Part shown: in pieces, positions 671 through 26,455 of the stretch
Layout of the letters: every line of letters starts with the position of its first letter
Numbering within the stretch: the stretch's first letter is position 1
Virus record (IMG/VR): IMGVR_UViG_3300015615_000629
Location: 432,711-496,710 of that record
Length of the DNA stretch: 64,000 nucleotides
Source: a virus
Taxonomy: Duplodnaviria; Heunggongvirae; Uroviricota; Caudoviricetes
Direction: 5' to 3' (one strand)
Program-made: the position numbers and the translations under genes
The notes under the pieces: generated by a model
Seen by the model: the letters and a program-made list of their open reading frames with translations, nothing else
What the model was told of the DNA's origin: nothing
Database searches by the model: none

Positions 671-1318
671 TTATAGTTTGGGGTATAAAATATCTGTTCT
701 CTCAAAAACTTCCAACTTTCCGCCAACCGTGGCATTAAAAACTTTTCTGTTGTGTGCCTTGTAATGTTCATCAATGTCTTTGTATATTTGGAACGGCTTT
801 CTCCAATCAAATCTAGGAAAATTGTCGGCTTGGCTGCCATCAAAATGATGCTGGCCCGAGTAATCGCAATCACATCCAACAAGATAAACCGTTTTGAACC
901 CCATATAAAAAGCCACTTCCAAGCAAAAAGTTATAATTGTTACGCCTGCGAAAGCCCCATTTTTTAAACTCCCCCATCCTGTGTGTTTGTTTTTATTGAA
1001 AAAATCAAGAGCTGGTATTTGTATCGCATCCGGATGGAATTCTAACCCATGTTTGAAAAACACTAAGTTGTTATCTTTAACGAACTTAAGTATGCCTTCT
1101 TTGTGGTTTCTCCAAACAATCGGGTCTGAAACACAAAAGTAGGTGCCCTTCAAGCCAAAATTATTCTTATACAAACCATTCGTTAGAAAACATATTTTGT
1201 CCTTCAAAAACTCAATATTCGTATTGTTCAAAGAAGGCCCTGTTCCTAGAATAAAGCAAGTTTCTCCGGAATGTAAATTTTTAAATTTTTTCAATTTTGG
1301 ACAAAAAGGAAACAACAT
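671..1318 (-). CDS. DUF115/Maf-like (MptE-like fold) putative nonulosonic-acid glycosyltransferase
   Basis: Motifs CFILGTGPSL...FLTNG...GVTIITFCLEVAFYMGFKTVYLVGCDCDY are typical of PF01973 motility-accessory-factor-type transferases. ATG at 1318-1316 was chosen; the track's longer ORF to 1600 would overlap the conserved N-terminus of the divergent gene. Confidence 0.55.
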   Translation of the reverse strand: MLFPFCPKLKKFKNLHSGETCFILGTGPSLNNTNIEFLKDKICFLTNGLYKNNFGLKGTYFCVSDPIVWRNHKEGILKFVKDNNLVFFKHGLEFHPDAIQIPALDFFNKNKHTGWGSLKNGAFAGVTIITFCLEVAFYMGFKTVYLVGCDCDYSGQHHFDGSQADNFPRFDWRKPFQIYKDIDEHYKAHNRKVFNATVGGKLEVFERTDILYPKL

Positions 1319-1976
1319 GATTATCGCAATAGTTCCAATGAAGGAAAATAACGAGCGATTGCCCAACAAAAATACCCTATTGTTAGGCGATAAACCCCTC
1401 TGTTGGTATCTATTAAACTCCCTAAACAACTCAAAAGTAGATAAAATTATTGTGGATGCAAATGGAGACTCAATCGTAAAAGCCGTCCAATCCTTAAATT
1501 TGTCGAAGATAGAGATTAGCGTTCGCCCTCCAGAATATTGCGATCCAAAGCTCGGCGGAAACGAACTTCTTAAAAGATTCGAGATGAAGCCCGAAAACAC
1601 TTACCTGCAATGCCATGTAACTTCGCCTTTTGTCGGTTCAGGTGTAATCAATGATGGATTGGAGGAAATGGACGAGTCTTTGTTTTCAGTAACAAAAATT
1701 CATCAAAGAGCGTGGAACCTATATAGGGAACCTTTAAACCATACTATTAATGGGCCTACCCAAAGAACTCAGGATATGGAGCCCATCTTTGTGGAAAATG
1801 GAGCTTTCTTCATGTTTACTGGAAAATTCTTTTTAGAGAATCAAAAACGCAATACAGAAAAGAGTCAACGTCTCGTACTTTCCTATCCGGAAACCATAGA
1901 AATTGATTATTTAGAAGATTTAGAAACAGCAAAAGCATACATAATGTATGCAGAATTTATGGCTTCAAAGAGATAA
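1317..1976 (+). CDS. Acylneuraminate cytidylyltransferase family (CMP-nonulosonic acid / CMP-sugar synthetase)
   Basis: MIIAIVPMKENNERLPNKNTLLLGDKPLCWYL and LQCHVTSPF match the NeuA/KdsB-type CTP_transf_3 N-terminus and its TSP motif. An AAAGGA SD sits upstream. The start ATG 1317-1319 shares the CATG tetranucleotide with the divergent gene's start. Confidence 0.75.
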   Translation: MIIAIVPMKENNERLPNKNTLLLGDKPLCWYLLNSLNNSKVDKIIVDANGDSIVKAVQSLNLSKIEISVRPPEYCDPKLGGNELLKRFEMKPENTYLQCHVTSPFVGSGVINDGLEEMDESLFSVTKIHQRAWNLYREPLNHTINGPTQRTQDMEPIFVENGAFFMFTGKFFLENQKRNTEKSQRLVLSYPETIEIDYLEDLETAKAYIMYAEFMASKR

Positions 1977-2394
1977 AGCAGAAAGCGTAAGAGACCTGTT
2001 TTTCTCACTATTACCATTCGAAGATGATGCAGAAGAAAGAGATTTTTCAGATTTAGGAATTGAGAAAAATCTTTATTTAAAAGGAATTCAGTTTTATTGC
2101 GATATAACAGCAGGATTTGACTTTGACACATTAATCTGTGGTGAAGATTTCCTTAATCTGTTGGAATTAACTGGATTGCTTACAAAACAAGATGATAGAT
2201 TCATAACCCATCCAGATAGTATTGACTATATCTCCTATCATGGAACCATAAACGAATCTATTACCGCCGACGTTTATACCGTTGATCCCTACAGTGAAAT
2301 TGTTCACCTGGGAAGTGTCGGAGACACTAAACCCAAATTCTGGTCGTATGTTCGTGTTTCCAATATTCCGGATGTATATCGAAGGAAAAATTAA
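1948..2394 (+). CDS. Hypothetical protein
   Basis: ATG-initiated ORF that overlaps the previous stop by 29 nt. No motif recognised. Confidence 0.4.
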   Translation: MQNLWLQRDKAESVRDLFFSLLPFEDDAEERDFSDLGIEKNLYLKGIQFYCDITAGFDFDTLICGEDFLNLLELTGLLTKQDDRFITHPDSIDYISYHGTINESITADVYTVDPYSEIVHLGSVGDTKPKFWSYVRVSNIPDVYRRKN

Positions 2395-2398
2395 TGAA

Positions 2399-2704
2399 AT
2401 GGATGTCAACAAATTCTTGGAAAGAATCTATCAATTAGTATATTTGGAAAAAATTGAAGCAGCCGTAGATACCATTTTTGACCAAATACAGTATCTAATG
2501 GATATCGGAAGAACCGATCTCTGCGATATCCTCTTAGGACACGCCGAACCAAATAAACTCCAAACCGACTCAATCGTGGCTTTTTTGACGACCACCAAGA
2601 CACTCAAAACAGAAAATCGACATATTTTTATAGAAAAAGCCAAAATTAGGATTGGAGAAATAAAAGGCAAAGAATATGCCGAAGAAATCCTGAAAAAATA
2701 CTAG
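2399..2704 (+). CDS. Hypothetical protein
   Basis: ATG at 2399 lies just after the upstream stop (TAA 2392-94). The track's ORF starts earlier, at 2282. Confidence 0.35.
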   Translation: MDVNKFLERIYQLVYLEKIEAAVDTIFDQIQYLMDIGRTDLCDILLGHAEPNKLQTDSIVAFLTTTKTLKTENRHIFIEKAKIRIGEIKGKEYAEEILKKY

Positions 2705-2712
2705 ATTAGTAC

Positions 2713-3048
2713 ATGCTTAAGAACACTTGGCTTCATGTCCGTATTGAATACGACTTTCAAGAAAATTACGAATGGCTCGATTCCTATGCCAAATTAAAGA
2801 GCACATATCTTTGTTTGGAGAAACCCTTTTTCCCTTCTCCTGAAGATTTTCATATTGCAAATACAGATAATGGGATGTATACAATACAATTACATGCTAG
2901 CGATCCAGAAAGCGGACGGATTGGTAATTTGGCATGGCCGCCATTAATTAACATTGATGGCAAACAAAAAACCTTCATGTTCTCCAACAAAAATAGAGAC
3001 ATTAAGGAAATGTTTGCCAAATTTGGAGAAACGCGGGTTTACTCATGA
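2713..3048 (+). CDS. Hypothetical protein
   Basis: ATG-initiated ORF, tightly packed in the same-strand gene array. Confidence 0.4.
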   Translation: MLKNTWLHVRIEYDFQENYEWLDSYAKLKSTYLCLEKPFFPSPEDFHIANTDNGMYTIQLHASDPESGRIGNLAWPPLINIDGKQKTFMFSNKNRDIKEMFAKFGETRVYS

Positions 3049-3260
3049 TTGCTATATCCTTTATAACGCTCTTTGCTTTGGTTGGAGTCCTTTCTTTTTG
3101 GGCGTTATTGGCACGGTCTATTATGATCAGCCTCCAAAGGCAAATCGATGAAGCTAACCAAGAAATCGACAGATTAAAGGAATCCGCTAACGACCCAAAA
3201 GTTAATTTAGATAAGATAAGAATAGCGTTGAATCATATGCACGAGAAAAATATGGAATAA
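3045..3260 (+). CDS. Small membrane-anchored coiled-coil protein
   Basis: ATGA overlap with the upstream stop. There is an N-terminal hydrophobic helix, IAISFITLFALVGVLSFWALLA, followed by a charged coiled-coil. Confidence 0.4.
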   Translation: MIAISFITLFALVGVLSFWALLARSIMISLQRQIDEANQEIDRLKESANDPKVNLDKIRIALNHMHEKNME

Positions 3261-3262
3261 TT

Positions 3263-3517
3263 ATGGAACATCAAAAGTTTAGAAACTATATGGCTGAAAA
3301 GGGTTATGAATTAAGGCCCGATGAAGCAAAAAATATTCTCAGTATTACAAAGAATTTTTGCAAATCTGTTTGCATGCTTAGCGAGGAATCCTTCTTGGAA
3401 ATGTTTGATGAAGATTCTGAAACCATTAAAAATCTTCGAGAAACAGGCTGTAACGAACAGCAAATCAGTGATTTTAGGAGGCTTTTAGTCACTGCGAGGG
3501 CTCAAAAACCCTACTAA
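3263..3517 (+). CDS. Hypothetical protein
   Basis: ATG-initiated ORF with no overlap. Confidence 0.4.
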   Translation: MEHQKFRNYMAEKGYELRPDEAKNILSITKNFCKSVCMLSEESFLEMFDEDSETIKNLRETGCNEQQISDFRRLLVTARAQKPY

Positions 3518-3572
3518 AAAATTGTAAGATCTAGCTGGATATATAAGGTGTCTAAAAAGGAATTTGACACCT

Positions 3573-4586
3573 ATGAAACCTAAAATTCTATTCATTTGCA
3601 AGAAAAGACTCAGCAGCTACGGAATTTCAGTCGGACTTTCAAATTCCGCTAAATTTGCTGCTAATTATTTAAATAAACACGGTATCGAAGCCAAAGTTGT
3701 CAACGTTGTCGATAACAACTGCATCGACCGTGAAGTAACCACCTATAACCCAACCCATGTAATTATTGAAGCTCTCTGGGTTGTGCCTCCTAAGTTTGAA
3801 ATCCTACTTCCTTTGCATAAAAATAGGAAGTGGTATGTCAGAATCCATAGTAAAGCCCCCTTCCTTGCCGGTGAAGGTATCGCTATGGATTGGATTAATG
3901 GTTATCGAGAAATTCACCAAAAACATAAGAACTTCCACATTTCCTGCAATAATTCAGAATTTAATGACGAATTAAACACCATTTTCCCAGACCTATGCAG
4001 CGTTTATCTGCCCAATGTCTACTGCGTCGAGGGAGAAGTTGAACAACATTGCCACCGCCATCACCACGATGTAAATATCGGTTGCTTCGGTGCTGTTAGA
4101 CCACTTAAAAACCAGTTAATTCAGGCTATGGCCGCTATCGCCTTCGCTGATGAAAATAACTTGAAACTTAAGTTTCACATGAACGGCGAAAGAATTGAAC
4201 ATGGTGAAAATATTATCAAAAATATTCGTGCTATGTTTGATGGAACCTGCCATAAATTAGTTGAACATCCTTGGATGCCGCATAATGAATTCCTTAAGTT
4301 GGTAGCCAAAATGGACTTAGGACTACAAGTAAGCCTTTCGGAAAGCTTTAATATTGTGAGTTCTGACTTTGTTCATTGTAACATCCCCCTTATTGTTTCA
4401 CCGGATATTTCTTGGATGCCTTGTATCTTCCAAGCCAATCCGAATTCAATGAAAAGTATTGTTTCAAAATTAAATTTCGCTTATTATACAAAAGACCTAT
4501 ATACCCACAAGGCAGCCAGCGTTGCCCTTTGGTGGTATAACCAAAAGGCCGGATTCGTCTGGCAAGATGTCCTTGGACTTTATTAA
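3573..4586 (+). CDS. Hypothetical protein; possible GT-B-like sugar-pathway enzyme
   Basis: The track begins at TTG 3564. The first ATG is at 3573, with AAAGGA upstream. N-terminal KILFICKK...YGISVG is reminiscent of a GT-B/PseG-like beta1-loop, but no decisive motif is present. Confidence 0.4.
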   Translation: MKPKILFICKKRLSSYGISVGLSNSAKFAANYLNKHGIEAKVVNVVDNNCIDREVTTYNPTHVIIEALWVVPPKFEILLPLHKNRKWYVRIHSKAPFLAGEGIAMDWINGYREIHQKHKNFHISCNNSEFNDELNTIFPDLCSVYLPNVYCVEGEVEQHCHRHHHDVNIGCFGAVRPLKNQLIQAMAAIAFADENNLKLKFHMNGERIEHGENIIKNIRAMFDGTCHKLVEHPWMPHNEFLKLVAKMDLGLQVSLSESFNIVSSDFVHCNIPLIVSPDISWMPCIFQANPNSMKSIVSKLNFAYYTKDLYTHKAASVALWWYNQKAGFVWQDVLGLY

Positions 4587-5200
4587 TGAGTTTCAGATTA
4601 TTTGTAGAGAAAACTTCTACATCCTATAGTTTTTCGTCGCTCCAATTCGACCTGCCGCAATTTCTGGCAGATAAAGTAATGGATTGGGGACAAAAACACA
4701 TCCCAGAAAAGAATGTCTTCACGGCCGAAAACAAATTTGGTCGTGAAGATAATATCCATCTTACCGTTCTCTACGGTATCCACGCCCAAGAACCACATAG
4801 AATTGTTAAGATTCTAAGAAGTTATCCTCAATTTAATATAAAGCTAGGCCCAATTTCACTTTTCACCACAGACGAACGTTTCGATGTTCTTAAAATCGAT
4901 GTCAAAAGTGAAGATTTAATGAAGTTAAATAAATTCATAAGAGACAGTATTCCGTACTCTACTAAGCATAAATCCTACCAACCACACATAACCATTGCCT
5001 ATATCAAAAAAGGCACCTGTAGGGATTTGGTAGGAAAACAGCCGTTCGATCAAGAGATAGAGGTTAAGAACCTTATCTTTAGTTCAAAGAACGGCTCAAA
5101 GAGCAAAATAAGGCTTACTAAGAGTAACTATTTACATGAAGCTTATATTGGCTATGGACTTAGTGAAAGACCAAATCAATGGTGTTTCAACTACAATTAA
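4586..5200 (+). CDS. 2H phosphoesterase superfamily protein (LigT / Acb1-like)
   Basis: Two H-x-T-x motifs, HLTVLYG and HITIAYI, lie about 90 aa apart, the hallmark of 2H cyclic phosphodiesterases. ATG at 4586. Confidence 0.6.
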   Translation: MSFRLFVEKTSTSYSFSSLQFDLPQFLADKVMDWGQKHIPEKNVFTAENKFGREDNIHLTVLYGIHAQEPHRIVKILRSYPQFNIKLGPISLFTTDERFDVLKIDVKSEDLMKLNKFIRDSIPYSTKHKSYQPHITIAYIKKGTCRDLVGKQPFDQEIEVKNLIFSSKNGSKSKIRLTKSNYLHEAYIGYGLSERPNQWCFNYN

Positions 5201-6137
5201 TGAACTAACTCCATACCTTAATGAACGTTTTGATGAAGTTAAAGTAATTTCCCCAAGCCTATTCAAAGTCTATAAGCCATATCTCTATCCGGAAGTCTCT
5301 CTGGCGTATGGTATTACAAATAGTAAACTTGCCGAAATAATTGGCCCAACTAAGTCCACCTGCATTCATATCTTTACGGAAGGCCCAATTGGACTTAAAG
5401 TTAGAAACTACTGCGTTAGAAATAAATTAAAATTTACAACTTCTTATCTCACACATTTTGCTGAACAGTTAAAGAACATTACGTACCTGCCAGAATGGCT
5501 CACATACGCCTATCTGCGTTGGTTTCATAGAGATTCCAACAAGATAATTGTGGCAACCAATACCATTAGAGACCATCTTAAAAGCAAGGGTTTCAAAAAT
5601 AAAATAGAACCATGTTCTAAAGGCGTAAACACCACGGTTTTTCATCCATATAAACGAGATAACACCACAAAGCCTTTAATCGCCTATGTGGGCAGGGTTT
5701 CTAAGGAAAAGAATATAGAAGCCTTCTTGGATTGTAAATTTGATTGTGATAAAGTAGTAATTGGCGATGGCCCATATAGAAAGACACTACAAAGCAACTA
5801 TCCGAATATTAAGTTCGTTGGTTATTTAAAAGGAAAGGATTTGGCTAAGGCATATTCCGATGCAGACGCAACTGTATTTCCTAGTTTAACTGATACCTTT
5901 GGTTTAACCATTATCGAATCGCTAGCATGCGGCACGCCCGTGGCGGCTTTTCCGGTAACTGGCCCTAAAGATATCTTAACTCCGGAAACCGGTGGTTTGG
6001 ATTGGGATATTGACGTAGCAATTTCCAAGGCTCTTAATTCCAATTCTCAGGATTGTATAGAATTGGCGGCTAAGTATTCATGGAGTGCTTGTGCAAATTG
6101 CTTCGTTAGAAACCTTATCATAACTAAAAATGGATGA
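5136..6137 (+). CDS. GT4-family (GT-B) glycosyltransferase
   Basis: VGRVSKEKN...VIGDGP...SDADATVFPSLTDTFGLTIIESLACGTPVAAF is the retaining GT-B E-X7-E region. ATG at 5136. Confidence 0.75.
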   Translation: MKLILAMDLVKDQINGVSTTINELTPYLNERFDEVKVISPSLFKVYKPYLYPEVSLAYGITNSKLAEIIGPTKSTCIHIFTEGPIGLKVRNYCVRNKLKFTTSYLTHFAEQLKNITYLPEWLTYAYLRWFHRDSNKIIVATNTIRDHLKSKGFKNKIEPCSKGVNTTVFHPYKRDNTTKPLIAYVGRVSKEKNIEAFLDCKFDCDKVVIGDGPYRKTLQSNYPNIKFVGYLKGKDLAKAYSDADATVFPSLTDTFGLTIIESLACGTPVAAFPVTGPKDILTPETGGLDWDIDVAISKALNSNSQDCIELAAKYSWSACANCFVRNLIITKNG

Positions 6138-6885
6138 TATAAGAAGTGTTTTTATCAGCGATGTACATCTTGGTTCATCTTATGCAAAACCTGATATTTT
6201 ACTTGAATTTCTAAAATCTGTTAAAAAACAAAAACCACTTTTTTTATACATTGTGGGTGACTTCATAGACGGCTGGAAAATGGGTCGTGGCTGGTGCTGG
6301 ACAAACACATCCACTCTTTTGATTAAAGAAATTTTAGATTTTGTCAATAATGGCACCCAAATTCTTGTCACCCCAGGAAATCACGACGAATTTATGCGTG
6401 ATTTTCTAGATACCTTCAAATCCCTTAATTTCGGAAATATAGAAATTAAAGAAGAATTCATCCACGTTTCCGCCACTGGCGAAAAACTTCTCGTTATGCA
6501 CGGCGACAGCTTCGATTTCGTAACTCGTTATGCTCCTTGGCTTTGCAAACTAGGCGATATTGGCTATGAAACCCTAATTATGTTAAACCATTTGATTGAC
6601 AAGATTAGGCGTGTATTTGGTAGAACCACCTATTATTCCATGAGTAAAGCCATTAAATCCAAGGTCAAACAAGCTGTCAATTATGTTGGCGACTTTGAAG
6701 CCTTCCTTGTAAAGTATGCAGAAGAGAAAGATTGTACCGGTGTAATTGCTGGACATATTCATACTGCTAACCTTAAGGAAATAAACGGGTTAAAGTATAT
6801 GAATTGTGGGGATTGGGTGGAAAGTTATACGGCAATTATCGAGAAGAATGACGGAACCTTTGAATTGTTTGATTACTACTCATAA
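6130..6885 (+). CDS. LpxH-like calcineurin-type metallophosphoesterase
   Basis: The full ordered motif set is present: ISDVHLG, GDFIDGW, GNHD, MHGD, GHIHT and NCGDW. It aligns with UDP-2,3-diacylglucosamine hydrolase family members. ATGGATGA overlap with the upstream stop. Confidence 0.7.
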   Translation: MDDIRSVFISDVHLGSSYAKPDILLEFLKSVKKQKPLFLYIVGDFIDGWKMGRGWCWTNTSTLLIKEILDFVNNGTQILVTPGNHDEFMRDFLDTFKSLNFGNIEIKEEFIHVSATGEKLLVMHGDSFDFVTRYAPWLCKLGDIGYETLIMLNHLIDKIRRVFGRTTYYSMSKAIKSKVKQAVNYVGDFEAFLVKYAEEKDCTGVIAGHIHTANLKEINGLKYMNCGDWVESYTAIIEKNDGTFELFDYYS

Positions 6886-6910
6886 ATAATAGTGAACATG
6901 GAGGTTCACT

Positions 6911-7543
6911 ATGAGTAAAAAGCGTTTAATCATTATTGTTGTAGTGTTTGTATTGGCTTGTTTTTGTGCCAAGACCTATGTCTTCGACCACAAAACACAG
7001 CCAATTCCTTCTATTCCTCATCATGAGAAATACGAACAATATGAGGAAGGCCCATCTTCTCCTTATGAATTACAGAAGATTGATCCTGTAATTGAGGAGT
7101 TGTTGGACGCCCATAATGCTGAAAGAAAGCGTCAAGGCAAATTAGAGTTAGCTGACGATCTTTGCGAAGCGGCTCAACAACACGCCGAATGGATGGCAAA
7201 ACACAACAATATGACCCATAAAGGATTTCAGCAAAGAATACCTTCTGGGTATTCTGGAGCAGGTGAAAATATTGCTATGGGACAGGATAGTGTTGAAGAA
7301 GTCGTAAATGCTTGGATGCATTCTTCAGGACACAGGGCTAATATACTAAATAGTAGCTTTAATTGTGTTGGATTTGGCGTAGCAGAATCAAATAACGGCA
7401 CTAAATATTGGTGTACAATGTTGGGGAACAAACAATGGACTTTAATGGATTCCTTGCAGAATCATCCTATAATCAATTATTTCAAAGAACTGTGGAATCA
7501 TTTCCTCAAACGACAGCCCGACAACACGCAACCCAGCAAATAA
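6911..7543 (+). CDS. CAP/SCP/PR-1 (YkwD-like) domain protein, signal-anchored
   Basis: GGAGG SD upstream. There is an N-terminal TM/signal, IIIVVVFVLACFCA, then LDAHNAERK, GENIAMG and AWMHSSGHRANILN motifs. Confidence 0.65.
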   Translation: MSKKRLIIIVVVFVLACFCAKTYVFDHKTQPIPSIPHHEKYEQYEEGPSSPYELQKIDPVIEELLDAHNAERKRQGKLELADDLCEAAQQHAEWMAKHNNMTHKGFQQRIPSGYSGAGENIAMGQDSVEEVVNAWMHSSGHRANILNSSFNCVGFGVAESNNGTKYWCTMLGNKQWTLMDSLQNHPIINYFKELWNHFLKRQPDNTQPSK

Positions 7544-7953
7544 AGACTTCTGGATTAGTAATTACACCGTTTTTGGGATTAAAGACGCTTTTCGTTAAAG
7601 CAATAGCACAAAATGAGAATCGTGAGAACACTGCTATCATTCTGTTTAAAAATATTGCTTACGACGGCAGCGGCCATAATCTGGTTCAATTTGTTGCTAG
7701 CGATGGTCATGATTACGTATTGGAGAGAATTTCGTTAGCAGAAAACGATGTTAATGTCCGTTGTACTTGTAAAGACTTCCAATGGAGATTCAATTATTTT
7801 GACCATCTAGACCATTCTCTATATGGCAAGAAGCGTAAGAAATATGAAGCCATTCATCGCCCTGGATCGGCAAACCCCAACGAAGCCGCTGGGGTTTGCA
7901 AACACATTATGGCTTTAGTCGAGCATCTGAAGGAATCGGGGTTGATTGGTTAA
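7435..7953 (+). CDS. SWIM zinc-finger protein
   Basis: CTCKDFQWRF...GVCKHIMALVEHL is a CxC...CxH SWIM signature. The track start is TTG 7408 and the first ATG is 7435. Either start overlaps the CAP-protein tail, so the start is uncertain. Confidence 0.45.
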   Translation: MDFNGFLAESSYNQLFQRTVESFPQTTARQHATQQIKTSGLVITPFLGLKTLFVKAIAQNENRENTAIILFKNIAYDGSGHNLVQFVASDGHDYVLERISLAENDVNVRCTCKDFQWRFNYFDHLDHSLYGKKRKKYEAIHRPGSANPNEAAGVCKHIMALVEHLKESGLIG

Positions 7954-9364
7954 AAACCATTTTAACGCCTAAAGAATTCGATTCTGATTGATTAAAGATT
8001 ATTTTTTCGCACTGTGAAACGGATAAGTTAGATTTTATTCGGTTACAATTGTTACATTTTAAATCATAATCGGAGGCTCCATATTTACTCTTAGGTTGTT
8101 TGTGATCAATTTGACAATTTTCTTCGTTTAATTTAATTCCACACATGGTACAGCGGCCATCTGATTCTAATTTGGCAATTGTTTTACTAATGCTTGGTAT
8201 GTCACGATTCTTTTTACTTAAATCAAAATTAGAAGCCAGTAATTCCTCCAATATTGTAAATCTATCTTCTATTGTTCCTGTATTGTCTTGATTTGATTTT
8301 AAATTTTGTTTATCTATACGCTTATAGAATTCTAGAATTACACTGTACATTTTATCCATGTTTTCTCTTATTTGAGAAATGGTTAAAACTTCTTCTTGTT
8401 GTTTTTTAACTAAAAATGCCAAAATATCTTTTAATGTATTTTGTTCAAGGATTTTGCCTATCTCATGTTTAAAGTCTAAAACATCCGAGACAACGTGACA
8501 CGTTCTCTTTAGAGTCTCAATGTTCTTCTTAATTTTAAGATCGTCAAGCATTATTTCTGTCACAAAACTTTTTTGATCATCTGTAATTTTTGAATTTTTT
8601 TCCAAATATTGCAGAATTTTATTGTCCAATTCTTTTATTGCTTCTTCTGCGACGATCTTTCTATAGCCGAATTTATCAGTAAAGGTAGGACCAAAACACA
8701 TATAACATACTGTATTGCACCACCTATATCCAGAGTATCTTCTGTTGTTGCTTAATTCTGCTCTTAAATGTTTTTTAAGAGGATTAAAGCAATAATTCCA
8801 AATATAATCCATTAAATTTTTTGTAAAAAAGTTATTGCAATATAAAGATTCATTCTTTTTCAGATTTTGCATAGCATTTATTCTTTCAAACAATGCACGT
8901 TGTTTCAACAAAGGCATTGGCTCCCATTGGACAACATTAACACCATAATTTACAAAAGGCAAATAATATTTTGTTTTAGCAATATCTCCGAATTTCATAA
9001 GTTTGTTTTCAATTTTTATTGCGAAAATATTATTGTAGAAATCTCGTATACATTGAAGCCTCTGTTTGCCATCCAATACATTGAATATAGTCGCTTCGGG
9101 AACTTCAATGTGTATGTTTTCACGAACTGTGGTTCGTGTTTGTGTAGTGCTTTGCTTGACCAAATGGCAGGTGCCGATAGGAATTCTATATAATATTGAT
9201 TCAATCAAATTAACTTTCATTGGTTTACTCCAGACATCATTTCCGCGTTGGTATGGAGTATCAAACTCACACAATGGGAACATTCCATGTAAGGTTGTAA
9301 TTGGAATTAGGCTTTGTTCTTGCTTTGATAAGTCTTCTGCTGTTAATAAATCGTCGATATTCAT
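7907..9364 (-). CDS. DUF262 (ParB/Srx-like, DGQQR) plus C-terminal HNH nuclease, GmrSD-like fusion
   Basis: VLDGKQRL is the DGQQR-type motif, and CTMCGIKLNEENCQIDHKQP...CNNCNRIKSN is an HNH motif near the C-terminus. ATG at 9364. It is the only minus-strand gene within a plus-strand block. Confidence 0.65.
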   Translation of the reverse strand: MNIDDLLTAEDLSKQEQSLIPITTLHGMFPLCEFDTPYQRGNDVWSKPMKVNLIESILYRIPIGTCHLVKQSTTQTRTTVRENIHIEVPEATIFNVLDGKQRLQCIRDFYNNIFAIKIENKLMKFGDIAKTKYYLPFVNYGVNVVQWEPMPLLKQRALFERINAMQNLKKNESLYCNNFFTKNLMDYIWNYCFNPLKKHLRAELSNNRRYSGYRWCNTVCYMCFGPTFTDKFGYRKIVAEEAIKELDNKILQYLEKNSKITDDQKSFVTEIMLDDLKIKKNIETLKRTCHVVSDVLDFKHEIGKILEQNTLKDILAFLVKKQQEEVLTISQIRENMDKMYSVILEFYKRIDKQNLKSNQDNTGTIEDRFTILEELLASNFDLSKKNRDIPSISKTIAKLESDGRCTMCGIKLNEENCQIDHKQPKSKYGASDYDLKCNNCNRIKSNLSVSQCEKIIFNQSESNSLGVKMVFNQSTPIPSDARLKP

Positions 9365-9426
9365 ATTTATTTTCTTCTCCTGTGTCTTATATTAGCACAC
9401 CTAAATTAAAAATCAACACATTTTTT

Positions 9427-9470
9427 ATAAAATTGTGTAAAATTCTATAAAATTGTATAAAATTTTACGA
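9427..9470. repeat. Imperfect 20-bp direct repeat, TATAAAATTGTGTAAAATTC / TATAAAATTGTATAAAATTT
   Basis: Read directly from the sequence. It gives four TATAAAAT (-10/late-promoter-like) cores in 44 bp, between divergent transcription units. Confidence 0.6.
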
Positions 9471-9523
9471 AAACCAGCACCAGTTCCCAGAAATCTTTAT
9501 TTATTTTAAGATGCTTAAATAAA

Positions 9524-9548
9524 ACTGGCACGCATAGTCCGCGTGCCA
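9524..9548 (+). promoter_or_regulatory. Perfect 9-bp stem / 7-nt loop hairpin (CTGGCACGC-atagtcc-GCGTGCCAG) directly abutting an AAAGGAG SD
   Basis: Read directly from the sequence. It is GC-rich within AT-rich DNA and ends 1 nt before the SD of the 23-aa ORF. Confidence 0.5.
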
Positions 9549-9561
9549 GAAAGGAGTTCAA

Positions 9562-9633
9562 ATGAACACAAAAGTTTATACTCTGGTTCTACTTGGTATA
9601 GTTTTTGCGATCTTGGCTTTAGCCATTTTGTAA
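9562..9633 (+). CDS. 23-aa hydrophobic peptide (MNTKVYTLVLLGIVFAILALAIL)
   Basis: Strong AAAGGAG SD 6 nt upstream of ATG. A single TM-length helix is followed by tandem terminators. The ORF is below the track's size cut-off. Confidence 0.4.
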   Translation: MNTKVYTLVLLGIVFAILALAIL

Positions 9634-9643
9634 GAATTAGGCT

Positions 9644-9700
9644 AAAACCGGCCTCCTATTTGAATAAGAAAAAATAGGGGGCCGGTTTACGGCCCCCTTA
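9644..9700. terminator. Two overlapping GC-rich hairpins (AAACCGGCCTCCTATTT..AAATAGGGGGCCGGTTT and GGGGGCCG-gttta-CGGCCCCC); bidirectional terminator between convergent genes
   Basis: Read directly from the sequence. It is flanked by A/T runs and lies between the + peptide ORF and the - gene 9749..10102. Confidence 0.55.
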
Positions 9701-9748
9701 GCACTTCTAAAAATCCACTTAGAAAGGAAAGGTCAAGTGCTAGATGTA

Positions 9749-10102
9749 TTAGAGCGAGCCCTTTGTAAAGATCGCGTAATCAATTACGTCAGTACCGTTG
9801 CCAGTAATAACGAACGAAACCCATGTGCCAGCACTGTCTGTGCGGGTCGTCACACGCGGCAAAGTCGTAGTAGCAGAAACGGCAGTCAACATAATCGTGT
9901 AGTGAGCATACCCACCAGGAAGAGCAGTCGTAAACGTAACAGTCTTCGTGCCACCCGAAAGGGTAACTTCATCAGTCATCACCAAATGCGGTGTAGTAAG
10001 AGGGGCTGTGGCCGGGGCGTAAATGTTACGTCCGTTGCCAGGACCAGTCTGCCCAGGATAAGCAGCACCCTTACCTTTGCCTGTTGCACTAGTTGCACTC
10101 AT
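9749..10102 (-). CDS. Small Thr/Gly-rich beta-rich protein with GC-rich codon usage
   Basis: GGAGATAAAAAT-ATG SD. The sequence is coherent (TKTVTFTTALPGGYAHYTIMLTAVSATTTL). The antisense + ORF 9737..10207 is R/S/C-rich junk. Third-position GC is clearly higher than in neighbouring genes. Confidence 0.5.
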   Translation of the reverse strand: MSATSATGKGKGAAYPGQTGPGNGRNIYAPATAPLTTPHLVMTDEVTLSGGTKTVTFTTALPGGYAHYTIMLTAVSATTTLPRVTTRTDSAGTWVSFVITGNGTDVIDYAIFTKGSL

Positions 10103-10196
10103 ATTTTTATCTCCTTGGGAATATCCCTTTGTGTTAACTTATCTAAACCACCCAAATATAAATTCTGGAATAATTTAATCCACACTACTATAGTGT

Positions 10197-10763
10197 ATGC
10201 ACGATAAAAATCCAGATTTTACAAAACGTCAATTACAAGTTATTCGAGGAACCATTTTAGGAGGTTCCTCTATAGTAAAACCCAAAGCAGGAACCAACTG
10301 TTATCTGTCCATACGCTCTAAAAACAAGACTTGGTTTGAATTTAAAATAGCAGAATTAGAGAATTTTTCAAGACAACATTCAATTCATTCGGATGTTACT
10401 TATCGCTGGCAATCTACCTGTTATCCTATCTTTAATGAATTTAGGGAAGAATTTTATCAAGAAAATGCCAGGAATTTAAAAATTGACAGTCTAAATGTAC
10501 TTACCGACGTTGCTATGGGGATTTGGGTAACAGATTCCGCCAAACTACTTAAAAACTCTCTAATACTTAAAACTAACATCTGGGGTAAAGATGGCACGGA
10601 AGTTATCAATGAATATTTTGGATTAATTGGATATAACTCTAAAGTTATACTGGAAAAAGGTTTATATCGAGTCCAACTCGATGAAGAATCAAGTGAAAAA
10701 GTTAAAAAACTAGTTTCTCCGCATTTAGCAATATTTTGGAGTAGATTACATGTCACCAGATGA
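10197..10763 (+). CDS. LAGLIDADG-family homing endonuclease (two-motif, single chain)
   Basis: VIRGTILGGSSI and LTDVAMGIWVTDSAKL resemble the two LAGLIDADG helices (LxGxxxGDGS / WxxDDG-type). ATG at 10197. Confidence 0.5.
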   Translation: MHDKNPDFTKRQLQVIRGTILGGSSIVKPKAGTNCYLSIRSKNKTWFEFKIAELENFSRQHSIHSDVTYRWQSTCYPIFNEFREEFYQENARNLKIDSLNVLTDVAMGIWVTDSAKLLKNSLILKTNIWGKDGTEVINEYFGLIGYNSKVILEKGLYRVQLDEESSEKVKKLVSPHLAIFWSRLHVTR

Positions 10764-12006
10764 AATAGTAAAGACTCTCAAAAAGAATGTCCTAATTCCA
10801 GAACAACCTTTTGTAGTGGATACTGACAAATCTATAGGCTCTTGGATATTTGATTCTGTAACAGCCAAATTTTATCTAGATTGCTTTTCTCAATATGGTT
10901 CCCAACCAATTGGTTGGAATCATCCTTTACTCCTAGCCAGAAAAGACGAAATAGCGGACGCTGCTATTCATAAAGTTGCCAATTCCGATATGCTCACTAA
11001 AGTTTATGCTCAGTTCATGAGTAGATTTTCTAAGATTACCAAAGATTTTAAAAACCACTTTTTCATTTGTGGTGGAGCTTTGGCAGTTGAAAACAGCCTA
11101 AAAGCAGCATTTGATTACAAGGCTCAAAAACTGAACCTATCAGAAAAACAAGTAAACAATTTAGATGTTGTTCATTTGAGAGATGCTTTTCATGGAAGAT
11201 CCGGTTATACATTGTCGCTAACAAACAACAGTAAAACTACCCTTAAAACAAAAAGATTTCCTAAATTCAATTGGACTACAGTTACAAATCCAAAAATTAC
11301 ATTTCCAATCGATGAAAATAAAGTTAAGAACCTGGAAACATCTAGTTTACTTGAAATCGAACACGCCCTTAAGAAAGGAAATGTAGCAGCCCTAATTGTG
11401 GAATTGATCCAATCTGAGGGAGGAGATCACCATTTCAGAAAAGAATACATTAAGGAGTTAAGGAAAATTACAAAAGACTATGATGTTATGTTTATAGTCG
11501 ATGAAGTTCAAACAGGGATGGGAATGACAGGTAAGTTATGGGCTTATCAACACTTTGACATTGTGCCTGATATGCTTGTATTTGGCAAAAAGACTCAAGT
11601 TTGTGGGTTCTGCTCTACAAATAAGATTAATGAGATAGAAGACAATGTCTTCAAAACAAGATATAGGATTAATTCTACATGGGGTGGCAATTCAACAGAT
11701 TTTGCTCGATCTACTATCTACATGGACATCATTGAATCCGAAGGATTAGTTGAAAATGCTAGAAGAAAAGGCGATCTGCTAAGAAAATTGCTGGCGAATT
11801 TTGAAGTTTCAAATATAAGGGGCAGAGGACTAATCTTAGCATTTGATCTAGAGAATGAAGAAGAAAGAGACAAATTCTTTAAGAAAATCAAGAAAAAGAT
11901 GCTTGTTCTGCCTTGTGGGGAGAAATCAATCCGCTTTAGACCACATCTAGACATCACTGAAGCAAATATCTTAAAAGCTGCCCAATTCGTTTCAGAATGT
12001 CTTTAA
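10750..12006 (+). CDS. Class-III PLP-dependent aminotransferase (lysine 6-aminotransferase-like)
   Basis: FIVDEVQTGMGMTGKLWAYQHFDIVPDMLVFGKKTQVCG contains the DEVQTG...GK signature and a PLP-lysine region. GGAG SD upstream. Confidence 0.75.
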   Translation: MSPDEIVKTLKKNVLIPEQPFVVDTDKSIGSWIFDSVTAKFYLDCFSQYGSQPIGWNHPLLLARKDEIADAAIHKVANSDMLTKVYAQFMSRFSKITKDFKNHFFICGGALAVENSLKAAFDYKAQKLNLSEKQVNNLDVVHLRDAFHGRSGYTLSLTNNSKTTLKTKRFPKFNWTTVTNPKITFPIDENKVKNLETSSLLEIEHALKKGNVAALIVELIQSEGGDHHFRKEYIKELRKITKDYDVMFIVDEVQTGMGMTGKLWAYQHFDIVPDMLVFGKKTQVCGFCSTNKINEIEDNVFKTRYRINSTWGGNSTDFARSTIYMDIIESEGLVENARRKGDLLRKLLANFEVSNIRGRGLILAFDLENEEERDKFFKKIKKKMLVLPCGEKSIRFRPHLDITEANILKAAQFVSECL

Positions 12007-12647
12007 TGAACTGGAGGTGCTCCAGGCATTTGCTGTGTTCCTGGCAATGACGGGGGTGTTGCTCCTGTTGGCTGTTGAAAATTAGCCTGTGTCATGGGCG
12101 TATGCGGCTGTTTCCAACCAGTTGAAGCATTTTGAGTAGTTTGAGCAGGGATGGCAGTTTGGCTCTGCATTAAAGTATTTTTTATTCCAAAAAGCCATTT
12201 TGTTAATAATTCTTTACCATCTGCTGTCCTCATTTGAGACATTTGTGGATCTTTCGATATGGTTTGAGATAGGCCATCTATTGCCTTTACAGCAGCAGAA
12301 AACCGTGCTTGGGGTCCGGTAAAATAATTCATAAACTGTTTGCCCATTGTTCCTAGAGCCGAGCCGGCCGTGTTTGCCATGTTTCCCATAGTTTGCCCGA
12401 AGCCTGGAGATGTTGGCATTTGAGGTTGCGAGGCCATTTGAGCCATTTGAGGAGCCAATTCATGAAAACGTCTCATTCCTTCGATTTGATCTTGAATAAG
12501 TGCGTCTTGTAAATTTTGATCTACATCGCCAGCCCAGTTAATTAACCATTCTTGAGGGTTTAATTCTTGTTCTACCATCATGGTGGCGATTTCATGAATT
12601 AAAGATTGCAGCGGACGAGATGATAAATAGGTATTGAAACTCTTCAT
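12003..12647 (-). CDS. Gln/Met-rich low-complexity protein
   Basis: No competing + ORF. The track start is TTG 12677 and the first ATG is 12647. It is divergent from 12678 (+). Confidence 0.35.
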   Translation of the reverse strand: MKSFNTYLSSRPLQSLIHEIATMMVEQELNPQEWLINWAGDVDQNLQDALIQDQIEGMRRFHELAPQMAQMASQPQMPTSPGFGQTMGNMANTAGSALGTMGKQFMNYFTGPQARFSAAVKAIDGLSQTISKDPQMSQMRTADGKELLTKWLFGIKNTLMQSQTAIPAQTTQNASTGWKQPHTPMTQANFQQPTGATPPSLPGTQQMPGAPPVH

Positions 12648-12677
12648 AGATTTATATATATAATTAGGGGAATTCAA

Positions 12678-13232
12678 ATGGACGATAAACTACAAAAATT
12701 TTTACCTTTTATAGTAGCTGGCTTGGCAGCTTTACTTATCTATGTTGCCATAGATAAAAATAAAACCAAGCCTATTTTAAAGAATTTGCCTGGACAACAT
12801 CATGAATGGAGTCCACAAGAATCTTGGGATTCAAAGCAGCAACCGGCTCCTGAAGAAGAACTTCCACCCGAAGAAACTTTACCTCCTGGTAAAGTTGTCA
12901 ACGATTACGAGGAAGCTTTAGCGGCTGCCAAAGAGAATAATCAACTAATTTTTCTTATTTTCCATACCAACACCTGTCCAAATTGCAGGACAATGGAAGA
13001 AACCCTAAATAACGACAATGTAAAAGCAGCAATGAAAAATGTAATCATTTGCTCTGTTGATGCAAATGCTGAGAAAAGATTATCAAGAAAATACAAGATT
13101 CAAGTAGTTCCAGCCTATTTTATGGTTGATGGAAACGAAACTATTCTAAACCACGGCACCGGAGCAGTATCGGAACAAGTCTTTGTAGATTGGTTAAATA
13201 GAAAATGGAGCGGCCACCACAGTTGGCGTTAA
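12678..13232 (+). CDS. Membrane-anchored thioredoxin-fold protein (CPNC active site)
   Basis: N-terminal TM helix, LPFIVAGLAALLIYVAI, then QLIFLIFHTNTCPNCRTMEETL (a Cys-x-x-Cys motif preceded by a beta-strand) and VVPAYFMVDG. Confidence 0.6.
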   Translation: MDDKLQKFLPFIVAGLAALLIYVAIDKNKTKPILKNLPGQHHEWSPQESWDSKQQPAPEEELPPEETLPPGKVVNDYEEALAAAKENNQLIFLIFHTNTCPNCRTMEETLNNDNVKAAMKNVIICSVDANAEKRLSRKYKIQVVPAYFMVDGNETILNHGTGAVSEQVFVDWLNRKWSGHHSWR

Positions 13233-13235
13233 TTT

Positions 13236-13418
13236 ATGATTTCAAGACAGTTGTTTAATTGGACAAAGAAAAAGAGAATTCGAAACTATACTCTTGAAGA
13301 AGTCGAGAACTTAATCGTCGAAATCAAGAAGTTCAATGCTGGCGTTATTGACAAATATCTAGACGCCCACGTAGACGAAGCCTTCGAAGAATGGCGTCGT
13401 AAACTCGAAAATTGTTAG
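13236..13418 (+). CDS. Hypothetical small protein
   Basis: ATG-initiated 60-aa ORF. Confidence 0.3.
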   Translation: MISRQLFNWTKKKRIRNYTLEEVENLIVEIKKFNAGVIDKYLDAHVDEAFEEWRRKLENC

Positions 13419-13473
13419 AAAAAAATATTCTCGCGTCACTAATCTAAGGTGATTTCTTTTAGTCGAGGATATT

Positions 13474-13662
13474 ATGTCTCAAAAAACCGTTAGAGAATTA
13501 GCTGTTCAAATAGCTAATTCTTTAAATTCCTATTGTTTATTTGACGGTGCCGCAGATACGTCACCAACCTCCTGGGCTATAAAAGAAAGTTCTAGAATAA
13601 TCGAGGAACACATTAAGGAATATCTTGAGCAAAATCAGACCCATCTTCAAAATCCAAGGTAG
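13474..13662 (+). CDS. Hypothetical small protein
   Basis: GAGGA SD 5 nt upstream of ATG. Confidence 0.4.
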   Translation: MSQKTVRELAVQIANSLNSYCLFDGAADTSPTSWAIKESSRIIEEHIKEYLEQNQTHLQNPR

Positions 13663-14398
13663 TAAACATTTGTTGGCTAGCTGGATAATTGACCATTTTC
13701 CTGAAAATTACGAAAATTTAAATTATTTGGAACCTTTCTGCGGCTCAGCAGGGGTGTTTTTTCATAAAACCCCCACCACAGAAGGGTTTACAGAGAATCT
13801 AAACGATGCAGATTCAGGGATAATTCAAATTTTTAGAGCCCTACGCGATGAACCTAAACTATTTACAAGTAGGATTAAAAGGATTCATTATACTGAACAA
13901 ACGTTCAAGCGAGCTAAAAACAGGGGTGAAGAATTTGAAGATTATATAGATTATGCGGTAAATGAGTTTGTTTTACGAAGGATGAGCCGCAATGGAGCAA
14001 AACAGAACTTTGCTTGGACGGAACGCCAGAGGGGTGGACAACCAAGTGATGTAAATGCCTGGGAAAGCATAACAGAGTACCTGCCAGAAGCCGCTCAACG
14101 TGTTAAAAGTATATTTCTTCTCAATAAAAATGCCATTAAAGTTATCCAAGCGTTCAATAGTGAAAATAGTTTAATCTATGTTGATCCACCCACGGACCCA
14201 ACTATTTCTAAAGAGCCATCTGAAATGGATTTAGATGCACATACGTTATTGGCTAAAATATTAAATCAAAGTAAAGCCAAAGTCTTGATTAGTGGATATG
14301 ACACGACATTTTATAAAAGGCTTTACAAAGAATGGAAGTGTTCTAAGAAAAGCAAGGACAAAAAGGTTAAAGCAGAATGTCTTTGGCGTAATTTCTAA
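13625..14398 (+). CDS. Dam-like DNA N6-adenine methyltransferase (D12 class) with atypical DPPT motif IV
   Basis: PIFKIQGSKHLL, EPFCGSAGVFF (motif I) and YVDPPT (motif IV, Y to T). The only in-frame start that includes the conserved N-terminus is TTG 13625, which overlaps the upstream ORF. Confidence 0.6.
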   Translation: MSKIRPIFKIQGSKHLLASWIIDHFPENYENLNYLEPFCGSAGVFFHKTPTTEGFTENLNDADSGIIQIFRALRDEPKLFTSRIKRIHYTEQTFKRAKNRGEEFEDYIDYAVNEFVLRRMSRNGAKQNFAWTERQRGGQPSDVNAWESITEYLPEAAQRVKSIFLLNKNAIKVIQAFNSENSLIYVDPPTDPTISKEPSEMDLDAHTLLAKILNQSKAKVLISGYDTTFYKRLYKEWKCSKKSKDKKVKAECLWRNF

Positions 14399-14409
14399 CT
14401 ATATAAAGA

Positions 14410-14580
14410 ATGGATTTCAGACAATGGTTAGAGAATGCTTGTGAGGTAAAATCTGCTCGTCTTTCTAATACGGCACAGGATTTAGATTTCTCCTTTTTAA
14501 AGAGCAAGTATCAATCTGGTACAAAAAAAGACCATCGTCGTCTTAATCCTGAGAAAACTTTTGGCAAACCGAATAAATAA
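14410..14580 (+). CDS. Unlisted 56-aa ORF in a 200-bp gap
   Basis: ATG...TAA reading MDFRQWLENACEVKSARLSN...; weak SD. Below the track cut-off. Confidence 0.2.
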   Translation: MDFRQWLENACEVKSARLSNTAQDLDFSFLKSKYQSGTKKDHRRLNPEKTFGKPNK

Positions 14581-14594
14581 TCTAAAGGAGAAAC

Positions 14595-14933
14595 ATGTCA
14601 CAAACTAATGATAGTCAACCGAACAATCCAGTAATTGTCTTCTCGGTTAATCTCACGCCTGTTACTGAAACTACGATTGGGCCGCTTACAAATAGTCGTA
14701 CAACGGGTATTTTATCGCCAGATCGTTTCCAATCCAGCCCAGATCAAGCCTTTATTGATATGGCCACTAGAGATAACTATATCTCAACTTGGCTTCCTGG
14801 CTTACTTGATGGAGAAAATAGAAAGCTCAAGGCAGGAGATACGTTTACTGTAAAAGGTGAAAAGGCTTACTATATTAAGCAACGATATACCACAGGCACG
14901 AATCCGATACTATCCGTTGTTTCGGAGTCCTAA
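14595..14933 (+). CDS. Hypothetical protein
   Basis: AAAGGAGAAAC-ATG, a strong SD. Confidence 0.5.
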   Translation: MSQTNDSQPNNPVIVFSVNLTPVTETTIGPLTNSRTTGILSPDRFQSSPDQAFIDMATRDNYISTWLPGLLDGENRKLKAGDTFTVKGEKAYYIKQRYTTGTNPILSVVSES

Positions 14934-15193
14934 TGAGCTTTTTAAAAGCCCTTGAATTAGCAGAGAACCAGGATCCGGCCATTGTGGCAATTCAAAAAGG
15001 AATTGACATTAGGCATCCTGGTTCTCCTGATTTTTGGGATGATTTTACAAGAATCTGTGCAAATCCTGAAGCCTTGGCTGCTCTATTAGACGTATCCAGG
15101 GACAAAGTTGCCAGCTGGCCGCAAAAAATTAAAACAATGAGGGCAAATCTCCCCAATAATGGGGATTACAATAAAATGATCAATACTGGTTAG
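14933..15193 (+). CDS. Hypothetical protein
   Basis: TAATG stop-start coupling. Confidence 0.4.
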   Translation: MSFLKALELAENQDPAIVAIQKGIDIRHPGSPDFWDDFTRICANPEALAALLDVSRDKVASWPQKIKTMRANLPNNGDYNKMINTG

Positions 15194-15196
15194 ATT

Positions 15197-22535: not shown

Positions 22536-22542
22536 ATAAGAC

Positions 22543-22881: not shown

Positions 22882-22901
22882 CCAATTTCGTGGAGTTTGG
22901 A

Positions 22902-26033: not shown

Positions 26034-26086
26034 GAATTAATATAGTGTTTTCTGGTGACGTATAACAAATGTTTTGGTATTCTGCT

Positions 26087-26404: not shown

Positions 26405-26455
26405 AAAATTTCTCCCTCTAATAAATAGTCTAGCAGTTCAATAGATAAAATCCAG

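Follow-up and report, generated by a model that had tools for sequence, protein, structure and literature searches.

Phage 2H phosphodiesterases are emerging as general erasers of the nucleotide alarm signals of bacteria, including those of CBASS (antiphage signaling that is based on cyclic oligonucleotides), those of type III CRISPR and the Panoptes decoys. One of them, Acb1, cleaves 3'3'-cyclic GMP-AMP (3'3'-cGAMP), cUA, cAAA and cAAG 3' of adenosine and shields phage from CBASS. In Acb1, W74 stacks on the base, as do Y12 and F107, E141 contacts adenine N6, and W147 lies in a C-terminal lid (Hobbs et al. 2022, PMC9117128). Of the seven structural groups of phage 2H enzymes that Doherty et al. 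(2025) tested, five cleave immune messengers, and the range follows the group: it is broad in groups 3, 7 and 8 and narrow in 2 and 5, whereas 1 and 6 are inactive on 18 messengers. The PDE-9 of that study is a cGAMP-cleaving enzyme of the Acb1 structural group with an N-terminal lid, and PDE-11 has already been catalogued and purified there as a viral 2H phosphodiesterase. A 2H module found inside polyvalent proteins and also as solo proteins of phages, and never with RNA ligases, was described by Iyer, Burroughs and Aravind (2017), who predicted, without biochemistry, that it is a ribonuclease (RNase) or a degrader of defence nucleotides. Here we describe a gene at 4586..5200 of a 64,000-nucleotide stretch of the Caudoviricetes record IMGVR_UViG_3300015615_000629 (positions 432,711 to 496,710; the whole stretch is the window below). 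The gene encodes a 2H phosphoesterase with an intact His-x-Thr/His-x-Thr tetrad, and on profile comparison its family is the polyvalent-type phage 2H clade of Iyer et al. 2017, PDE-11 included, a very large, phage-specific sister group to Acb1 that is distinct from Acb1 itself. The features of the gene and its product are as follows.

4586..5200, plus strand: 2H phosphoesterase gene, an ATG-to-stop open reading frame (ORF) of 204 aa
4586..4609, plus strand: N-terminal leader MSFRLFVE (aa 1-8), of the form aromatic-[RK]-x-aromatic-hydrophobic-Glu, a candidate T4-type capsid-targeting sequence or N-terminal lid
4736..4750, plus strand: family-specific FGRED motif (aa 51-55), just N-terminal to the first catalytic motif, with G52, R53 and E54 invariant
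4757..4768, plus strand: catalytic motif 1, H58-L-T60-V (HLTV, aa 58-61), with H58 and T60 invariant in 43 sequences and aligned with H44 and T46 of Acb1
4862..4864, plus strand: F93, invariant, aligned with the base-stacking W74 of Acb1 (hhalign pairs SLFTT with EVWKT)
4985..4996, plus strand: catalytic motif 2, H134-I-T136-I (HITI, aa 134-137), preceded by Y131 and P133 and aligned with Y110-x-P-H113-x-T115 of Acb1
5078..5101, plus strand: family-specific C-terminal FSSKNGSK motif (aa 165-172), at the place of the E141 region of Acb1, in a region not alignable to Acb1
5117..5197, plus strand: aromatic-rich, non-conserved C-terminal tail (aa 178-204), with a predicted local distance difference test score (pLDDT) of 52-63; the overlap with the downstream glycosyltransferase family 4 (GT4) gene starts at nt 5136

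HLTV and HITI are the two H-x-T/S-x motifs, about 70-80 residues apart, that define the 2H superfamily, and the protein exceeds the cutoff of Pfam family PF13563 (2H/"2'-5' RNA ligase" superfamily), with 33.9 bits where 27 are required (E 4e-8). Its PHROGs match, phrog_755, is labelled "RNA ligase". The predicted structure is a confident model of the 2H fold, bilobed alpha+beta with both motifs facing one cleft, in which residues 1-11 are disordered (leader pLDDT 39). A collection of 5.8 billion proteins yielded 46 homologues. Across the alignment of 43 sequences, G52, R53, E54, H58, T60, F93, V101, P133, H134 and T136 are invariant, F165, S166, G170 and K172 of the FSSKNGSK motif are nearly so, and the conserved domain spans approximately aa 12-177, with non-conserved flanks. 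The aromatic tail was considered as an Acb1-like lid and ruled out: relatives lack it, and the closest relative ends at aa 192. Its apparent conservation arises because it overlaps the N-terminus of the GT4 protein, the first 26 residues of which are identical in both phages, and the tail is probably incidental read-through.

That a 2H phosphoesterase of about 200 aa with two H-x-T-x motifs lies here was the starting point of the original prediction, and the Pfam match, the motifs, the fold model and the length of 204 aa bear it out. The same prediction called the protein Acb1-type, with a LigT-like enzyme as the alternative, and here the outcome is mixed. Kinship of the family with Acb1 is supported by the profile comparisons. 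In hhalign the family matches Acb1 with a probability of 97.1% (E 7.5e-11, 117 columns) and enterobacterial ThpR with 82.5% (E 1e-5), against 1.2% for Acb1 versus ThpR; the ThpR reference profile was built from close enterobacterial relatives only, so that these ThpR comparisons understate distant similarity. Against the PDB, a search with the single window sequence returned nothing significant, and Acb1/PDE-9 and LigT-type chains were matched by the family profile only, the best being PDE-9 (9Q2G, E 2e-6), followed by the archaeal LigT-like PH0099 (1e-4) and the Acb1 of Erwinia phage FBB1 (5e-4). The Acb1 tetrad H44/T46/H113/T115 aligns in hhalign with H58/T60/H134/T136. Of the base-stacking aromatics, W74 corresponds to the invariant F93 and F107 to H128 in the window protein (Tyr in the family consensus); Y12 pairs with a non-conserved position, in a beta1 strand whose register is uncertain. 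The Pfam Acb1 model (PF23474) is matched by 42 of the 43 family members, with scores of 17 to 42 bits.

Acb1 membership itself fails. On PF23474 the window protein, at 25.4 bits, stays short of the cutoff of 27 and covers only the catalytic core (model positions 32-131 of 144), on a scale where T4 Acb1 reaches 202.7 bits over positions 1-144, PDE-9 56.4 and the PDE-11 of phage Colly_1 27.6; several family members, among them P0020 (41.8 bits) and P0003 (33.0), do exceed the threshold. Counterparts of the C-terminal lid (145-152), of W147 and of E141 were not found in the window protein or its family: the profile alignment ends just past the second HxT, and family members stop right after the last strand with a conserved FSSKNGxK and no conserved aromatic. 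Judged by its sequence, the protein does not qualify as a true Acb1. The comparisons place it outside LigT/ThpR orthology as well, contrary to the alternative offered at the outset. In reciprocal scoring, the Acb1 hidden Markov model (HMM) gives it 20 bits, and its relatives at most 34, and the ThpR HMM 5.6 bits; Pfam LigT_PEase (PF02834) stays below threshold at 16.4 bits against 23.3. A structural comparison of Acb1 with LigT had been proposed as one way to decide, and the Foldseek search recovered the 2H fold without discriminating between them. Template modelling scores (TM-scores) normalised by target length are 0.58-0.66 for LigT, 0.56-0.60 for Acb1 and 0.60-0.62 for PDE-9, the latter two being smaller targets; the scores are equal, and the fold comparison therefore does not separate Acb1 from LigT. 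Within a library of viral structures, the first proteins labelled Acb1 appear at rank 22. On the sequence comparisons, the family bridges Acb1 and ThpR and lies nearer to Acb1.

The family profile, run against 1.84 billion representative proteins, gave 6,491 clusters at E<=1e-3 and 5,036 at E<=1e-10 (clusters counted at 50% identity). Among the 150 best matches, roughly one in two is multidomain, with a complete 2H domain inside proteins of 300-5,614 aa; these domains match profile positions ~7-179 at 180-210 bits, on par with the stand-alone proteins. Partner domains in the multidomain members include LPD1, LPD5, LPD23 and LPD38 (LPD, large polyvalent protein-associated domain), the SLT lytic transglycosylase, ddrB-ParB and a low-molecular-weight phosphatase. 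An NDT-like nucleotide-binding domain recurs in five fused proteins, among which an NDT-like + 2H architecture of ~405-446 aa (P0255, P0283, P0366) carries an N-terminal Nuc_deoxyri_tr2 match at a sub-threshold 24-25 bits. One protein of 339 aa, P0263, joins the 2H domain to the phage protein Tad3 (105 bits), which inhibits Thoeris and binds its TIR protein, ThsB. An RNA ligase, RtcB, polynucleotide kinase or Tpt1 was looked for in 47 multidomain members, at the loci of 8 homologues and in those window ORFs that had been run against Pfam or had matches in relatives, and none turned up.

What might such an enzyme do? The function we favour, with a confidence that is about evenly balanced, is that of a counter-defence phosphodiesterase acting on a host nucleotide messenger; the product appears to be a catalytically competent, stand-alone 2H protein of a clade that is sister to Acb1. 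A counter-defence role is suggested because members of the clade are fused to anti-defence and injected modules, because it is kin to Acb1, because RNA-ligation partners are missing, and because several sister groups have published activity. By analogy with Acb1, the enzyme would bind a small nucleotide messenger of the host; the leading candidates would be the cyclic oligonucleotides of CBASS or type III CRISPR, or 2'-5'-linked or 2',3'-cyclic species. Its two histidines would carry out metal-independent acid-base catalysis, in which a ribose 2'-OH would attack the adjacent phosphodiester to give a 2',3'-cyclic phosphate intermediate. Hydrolysis of this intermediate would leave a linear product that no longer activates the effector.

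The genes that adjoin the 2H gene and the head genes of the window are these.

3564..4586, plus strand: glycosyltransferase-like gene upstream, with weak GT4-conflict and PHROG glycosyltransferase matches; its stop overlaps the start of the 2H gene (TAATG)
5136..6137, plus strand: GT4 glycosyltransferase downstream (Pfam Glycos_transf_1, 69 bits), with a 65-nt overlap with the 2H gene
36442..37884, minus strand: T4 gp23-type major capsid protein (Pfam Gp23, 284.6 bits)
38854..39570, minus strand: T4 gp21-type prohead protease (S77; Peptidase_S77, 92.3 bits)
44227..46767, minus strand: T4-type portal (gp20; Portal_T4, 239.9 bits) with an intein-like insertion (Intein_splicing 34 bits, below the 35.8 cutoff)
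46823..47365, plus strand: orthologue of the ORF that flanks the 2H gene in relatives (BLASTP matches to the flanking genes of loci L002, L003, L005, L007 and L011)
47885..49690, minus strand: large terminase, 46-51% identical to the Terminase_6N genes of relatives (Pfam Terminase_6N sub-threshold, 16.7 bits against a cutoff of 22)

The window holds a complete T4-type head module of capsid protein, prohead protease, portal and terminase, but the T4-family phage assumed in the original prediction is not what we find in the narrow sense: the source is a megaphage of ~572 kb with a T4-type head. An accessory region rather than a set of RNA-repair genes had also been foreseen, and here the prediction was right, as the gene sits in a glycan-biosynthesis region with no RNA-repair genes nearby. 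The genome size rests on a 100%-identical protein, P0001, from a JGI cluster in which the longest contig has 572,167 bp; the best phage matches are to metagenomic "huge phage" genomes of 480-640 kb, and megablast of the first 20 kb of the window against 50,697 phage records gave no match. The closest relative, P0002, is 64% identical, comes from an independent ENA assembly and carries the same overlap of 2H and GT4 genes; the arrangement is therefore real. In its contig (L014) the gene 3' of the 2H gene is 76% identical to the GT4 gene of the window. Elsewhere in the clade the surroundings differ. Six homologue contigs of 40-181 kb share the order ferritin, (M28 peptidase), large terminase, 1-3 small ORFs and 2H gene, followed in four of the six by a T4-type portal; the order recurs in a published phage of 595 kb, LR756511.1. 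The window orthologues of these neighbours are 47-51% (portal), 49-65% (M28 peptidase) and 46-51% (terminase) identical to their counterparts and lie 42 kb from the 2H gene, which is itself 38-50% identical to its relatives. With identities of the same order for 2H and terminase and this distance between them, the gene looks vertically inherited, within a phage clade with T4-type heads, and relocated here into a glycan-synthesis island; the ORF at 46823..47365 would mark the ancestral terminase-portal slot, now without a 2H gene.

The island extends over roughly 1100..27000. It includes a cytidylyltransferase (1143..1976), at least five glycosyltransferases (starting at 3564, 5136, 15197, 20532 and 25101), a class III aminotransferase (10750..12006) and a GDP-mannose 4,6-dehydratase (23557..24543), and could serve DNA or virion glycosylation or modification of the host surface. 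Scans for regulatory signals gave no lead. The T4 late-promoter motif TATAAATA occurs at 3 sites against 6.2 expected, none of them near the 2H gene, and sigma-70 promoter and terminator scans around the gene stayed below shuffled expectation.

Several observations weigh against a counter-defence phosphodiesterase. The protein falls short of the Pfam Acb1 cutoff (25.4 against 27 bits) and has no counterpart of the lid with W147 or of E141, and its beta1-alpha1 segment (DLPxxLAxxIxxWG) is ThpR-like. In this clade the 2H gene is a conserved, syntenic head-module gene and not a sporadic accessory, which is unusual for anti-defence genes. Two of the seven groups tested by Doherty et al. cleaved none of the 18 messengers, and our search for RNA-repair partners covered 64 kb of a ~572-kb genome, the remaining ~508 kb lying outside it. 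It is also possible that the enzyme heals RNA ends, as a LigT/ThpR- or Trl1-CPD-like 2',3'-cyclic phosphodiesterase that opens the cyclic phosphate ends which host anticodon nucleases or other metal-independent RNases leave on tRNA or mRNA, for religation or clearance. We take this to be a serious rival, yet an unlikely one. If it were correct, one might expect RNA-ligation partners, but none was seen in the window, the related loci or the multidomain relatives, and Iyer et al. never saw the polyvalent-type 2H module with them. The ThpR and LigT_PEase scores given above are low, TM-scores to Acb1 and PDE-9 equal those to LigT once size is normalised, and a scan found no tRNA genes in the window, and therefore no tRNA-repair context. 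A narrower form of the counter-defence phosphodiesterase, already counted within it, is a strict Acb1 orthologue with an anti-CBASS role and the substrate range of Acb1. In the profile comparisons no characterised family lies nearer than Acb1, several family members such as P0020 and P0003 pass the Pfam threshold, and the tetrad and the equivalents of W74 and Y110 are conserved; with the window protein itself below that threshold, FSSKNGxK in place of the missing E141, W147 and lid, and Acb1-labelled proteins so far down the structural ranking, we nonetheless hold strict orthology to be quite improbable, all the more so as Doherty et al. show that substrate range varies between 2H structural groups.

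Two further functions seem to us less probable still. An offensive RNase resembling Usb1/Mpn1 could trim or cleave host RNA early in infection and leave 2',3'-cyclic phosphate ends, but the protein has no RNA-binding accessory domain, its sequence kinship is with Acb1 and not with Usb1, and the Tad3 and NDT-like fusions point to signalling defences; we would be surprised if this were its role. The least probable of all, to the point of being remote, is an accessory enzyme of the glycan island that acts on a phosphodiester-linked sugar or a nucleotide-sugar by-product. Such a role could be read from the operon-style packing of the gene, in which stop and start codons overlap and two glycosyltransferases and a calcineurin-type phosphoesterase are the neighbours, from the cytidylyltransferase, aminotransferase and GDP-mannose dehydratase of the same island, and from the recurrence of this arrangement in the closest relative. 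The orthologue of seven relatives, LR756511 with its 595 kb among them, nevertheless sits in the terminase-portal module without glycan genes; the linkage is therefore recent and not conserved, and the location in the island says little about function. To our knowledge, no 2H enzyme acts on glycans.

A leader of similar form to that of the window protein is known from T4. The T4 internal proteins IPII and IPIII start MKTYQEFIAE/A (here and below a slash follows the Glu) and IPI starts MKTFKEF; in IPIII the ten N-terminal residues are enough to direct a protein to the capsid, with residues 4 and 7 serving targeting and 8 and 10 cleavage by gp21. Many stand-alone members of the 2H family begin M-(K)-T-F-[RK]-x-F-[LIV]-x-E, as in MKTFKQFLIE (P0011), ..KTFRQFLAE/A and ..FRKFLE/M. 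The leaders of P0011 and of P0017 and P0007 (..KTFRxFLAE/A) fit the T4 pattern exactly, and that of the window protein, MSFRLFVE/K, keeps the aromatic spacing with its Glu one residue earlier than in T4. The full motif occurs in 16 of the 46 close family members and in 7 of 74 stand-alone representatives, against none of 73 multidomain proteins, 1 of 68 Acb1 proteins and none of 120 ThpR proteins; some of the "leaderless" members have miscalled starts, and others start exactly after the predicted cleavage Glu. A second ORF of the window begins in the same way.

3263..3517, plus strand: 84-aa ORF starting MEHQKFRNYMAEK, with the same aromatic-R-x-aromatic-hydrophobic-A-E leader and no Pfam match, 1 kb upstream of the 2H gene

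Its product is a candidate small internal protein, and another small ORF with the same leader lies at 14206..14421 of locus L007. These two independent leader-bearing ORFs compare with ~0.4 expected from the internal motif rate in real ORFs, once the two motif-defining family members are removed, and amount to a weak enrichment.

The same genome encodes a gp21-type protease, a gp20 portal and a gp23 capsid protein. We speculate, tentatively and with more doubt than belief, that the stand-alone 2H enzymes of the clade could be T4-style internal proteins that are loaded into the prohead by their leader, cleaved by the gp21-type protease and injected with the DNA. A signal-degrading phosphodiesterase would in that case be in the cell ahead of any phage gene expression, the solo enzymes would correspond, as single domains, to the 2H modules that injected polyvalent proteins carry, and the ancestral terminase-portal position would reflect their status as head components. 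Another explanation is that the aromatic core of the leader may be an ancestral element of the enzyme or a lid: an N-terminal aromatic-[RKQ]-x-aromatic element is present in 20 of 68 Acb1 proteins (e.g. MMEFKDFSTG, which lacks the Glu) and in none of 120 ThpR proteins. In T4 itself, acb1 (57B) adjoins ipI (L008 1592..2411; T4 73591..74410), and T4 Acb1 starts MMEFKDF, with aromatics at positions 4 and 7 and the cleavage Glu missing. T4 Acb1 might share a vestige of the same capsid route.

Other genes of the window are of some interest in their own right. Directly 3' of the GT4 gene, 6130..6885 (plus strand) encodes a calcineurin-like metallophosphoesterase, and it is followed by a CAP/SCP-domain protein with an N-terminal hydrophobic segment (6911..7543, plus strand). 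Calcineurin-like phosphodiesterases are among the candidate counter-nucleotide enzymes of jumbo phages listed by Iyer et al. At 7907..9364 (minus strand), a GmrSD_N-like domain (33.0 bits, cutoff 33.2) and an HNH nuclease are joined in one protein of 485 aa, which is type IV restriction-like. T4 IPI* inhibits GmrSD. A LAGLIDADG homing endonuclease (10197..10763, plus strand, 61 bits) lies directly upstream of the aminotransferase gene and overlaps it. A 220-aa ORF at 22902..23564 (minus strand) shares 30-35% identity with the clade's large terminase in its N-terminal, ATPase part and has a weak Terminase_6N match (19 bits), making it a second, shortened terminase-like gene 25 kb from the real terminase. 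A homologue of inosine-uridine-preferring nucleoside hydrolase (44 bits) is encoded at 32643..33500 (plus strand). The intein-like insertion of the portal gene is kept in four related contigs and in LR756511.1. Ferritin-like and M28 aminopeptidase genes (49853..51471, plus strand) adjoin the terminase and are divergent from it throughout the clade (L002-L007), unusual fixed neighbours for a packaging module.

For megaphage genes such as this one, the choice between Acb1 and LigT is too narrow, as there is a third clade, which with its more than 5,000 clusters exceeds Acb1 proper by far and occurs in injected polyvalent proteins and also fused to an anti-Thoeris inhibitor. The substrate of the 2H protein, once determined, would annotate thousands of phage proteins at once. 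An undescribed messenger could emerge from such work, because Doherty et al. found two structural groups inactive on all 18 known messengers. If the capsid-targeting leader is real, the 2H protein would exemplify a signal-degrading enzyme that is pre-loaded and injected, and the leader would be a simple sequence tag with which to search phages with T4-type heads for further anti-defence proteins that are injected. For us the main value of the gene lies in being an entry point to a very large family, together with the leader hypothesis.

How, then, does the locus compare with the systems known so far? LigT/ThpR enzymes (E. coli ThpR, 4QAK/5LDM; the Deinococcus CPDase, 5H7F; PH0099) are cellular housekeeping or repair enzymes and not phage proteins, have no N-terminal leader and are 15-19% identical to the window protein. 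With the T4 internal proteins IPI, IPII and IPIII the likeness is confined to the leader, in its aromatics at the targeting positions and its hydrophobic residue and Glu at the processing positions, this Glu coming one residue early in the window protein; the mature parts are unrelated, and the T4 proteins are small basic inhibitors and not enzymes. Acb1 (T4 gp57B and Erwinia phage FBB1; PF23474) and PDE-9 (9Q2G) share with the window protein the 2H fold, the HxT/HxT tetrad, F93 and Y131 as the equivalents of W74 and Y110, and an N-terminal aromatic-K/R-x-aromatic element. The window protein differs from Acb1 in an extra insertion of ~17 residues with the invariant FGRED and in a core of ~165 residues as opposed to 140. 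PDE-11 (Doherty et al. 2025; gp180 of Maribacter phage Colly_1, YP_010357429) is likewise a solo protein of a phage, its tetrad is intact, and it has the conserved motifs G-x-E, YG and PH-x-T-x-AY; it scores 86.8 bits on the family HMM and ranks third in the viral structure library, with a target-normalised TM-score of 0.73. It departs from the window protein in its length (161 aa), in an identity of 35% that extends over aa 52-146 only, in its reduced beta1-alpha1 segment and in lacking the FGRED arginine, and its gene lies among small hypothetical genes of a 124-kb phage, not in a head module. The polyvalent-protein 2H module (Iyer 2017) is the same full-length domain, built into proteins of 1,000-5,600 aa together with LPD, SLT and ddrB-ParB domains, and the window protein is its solo version.

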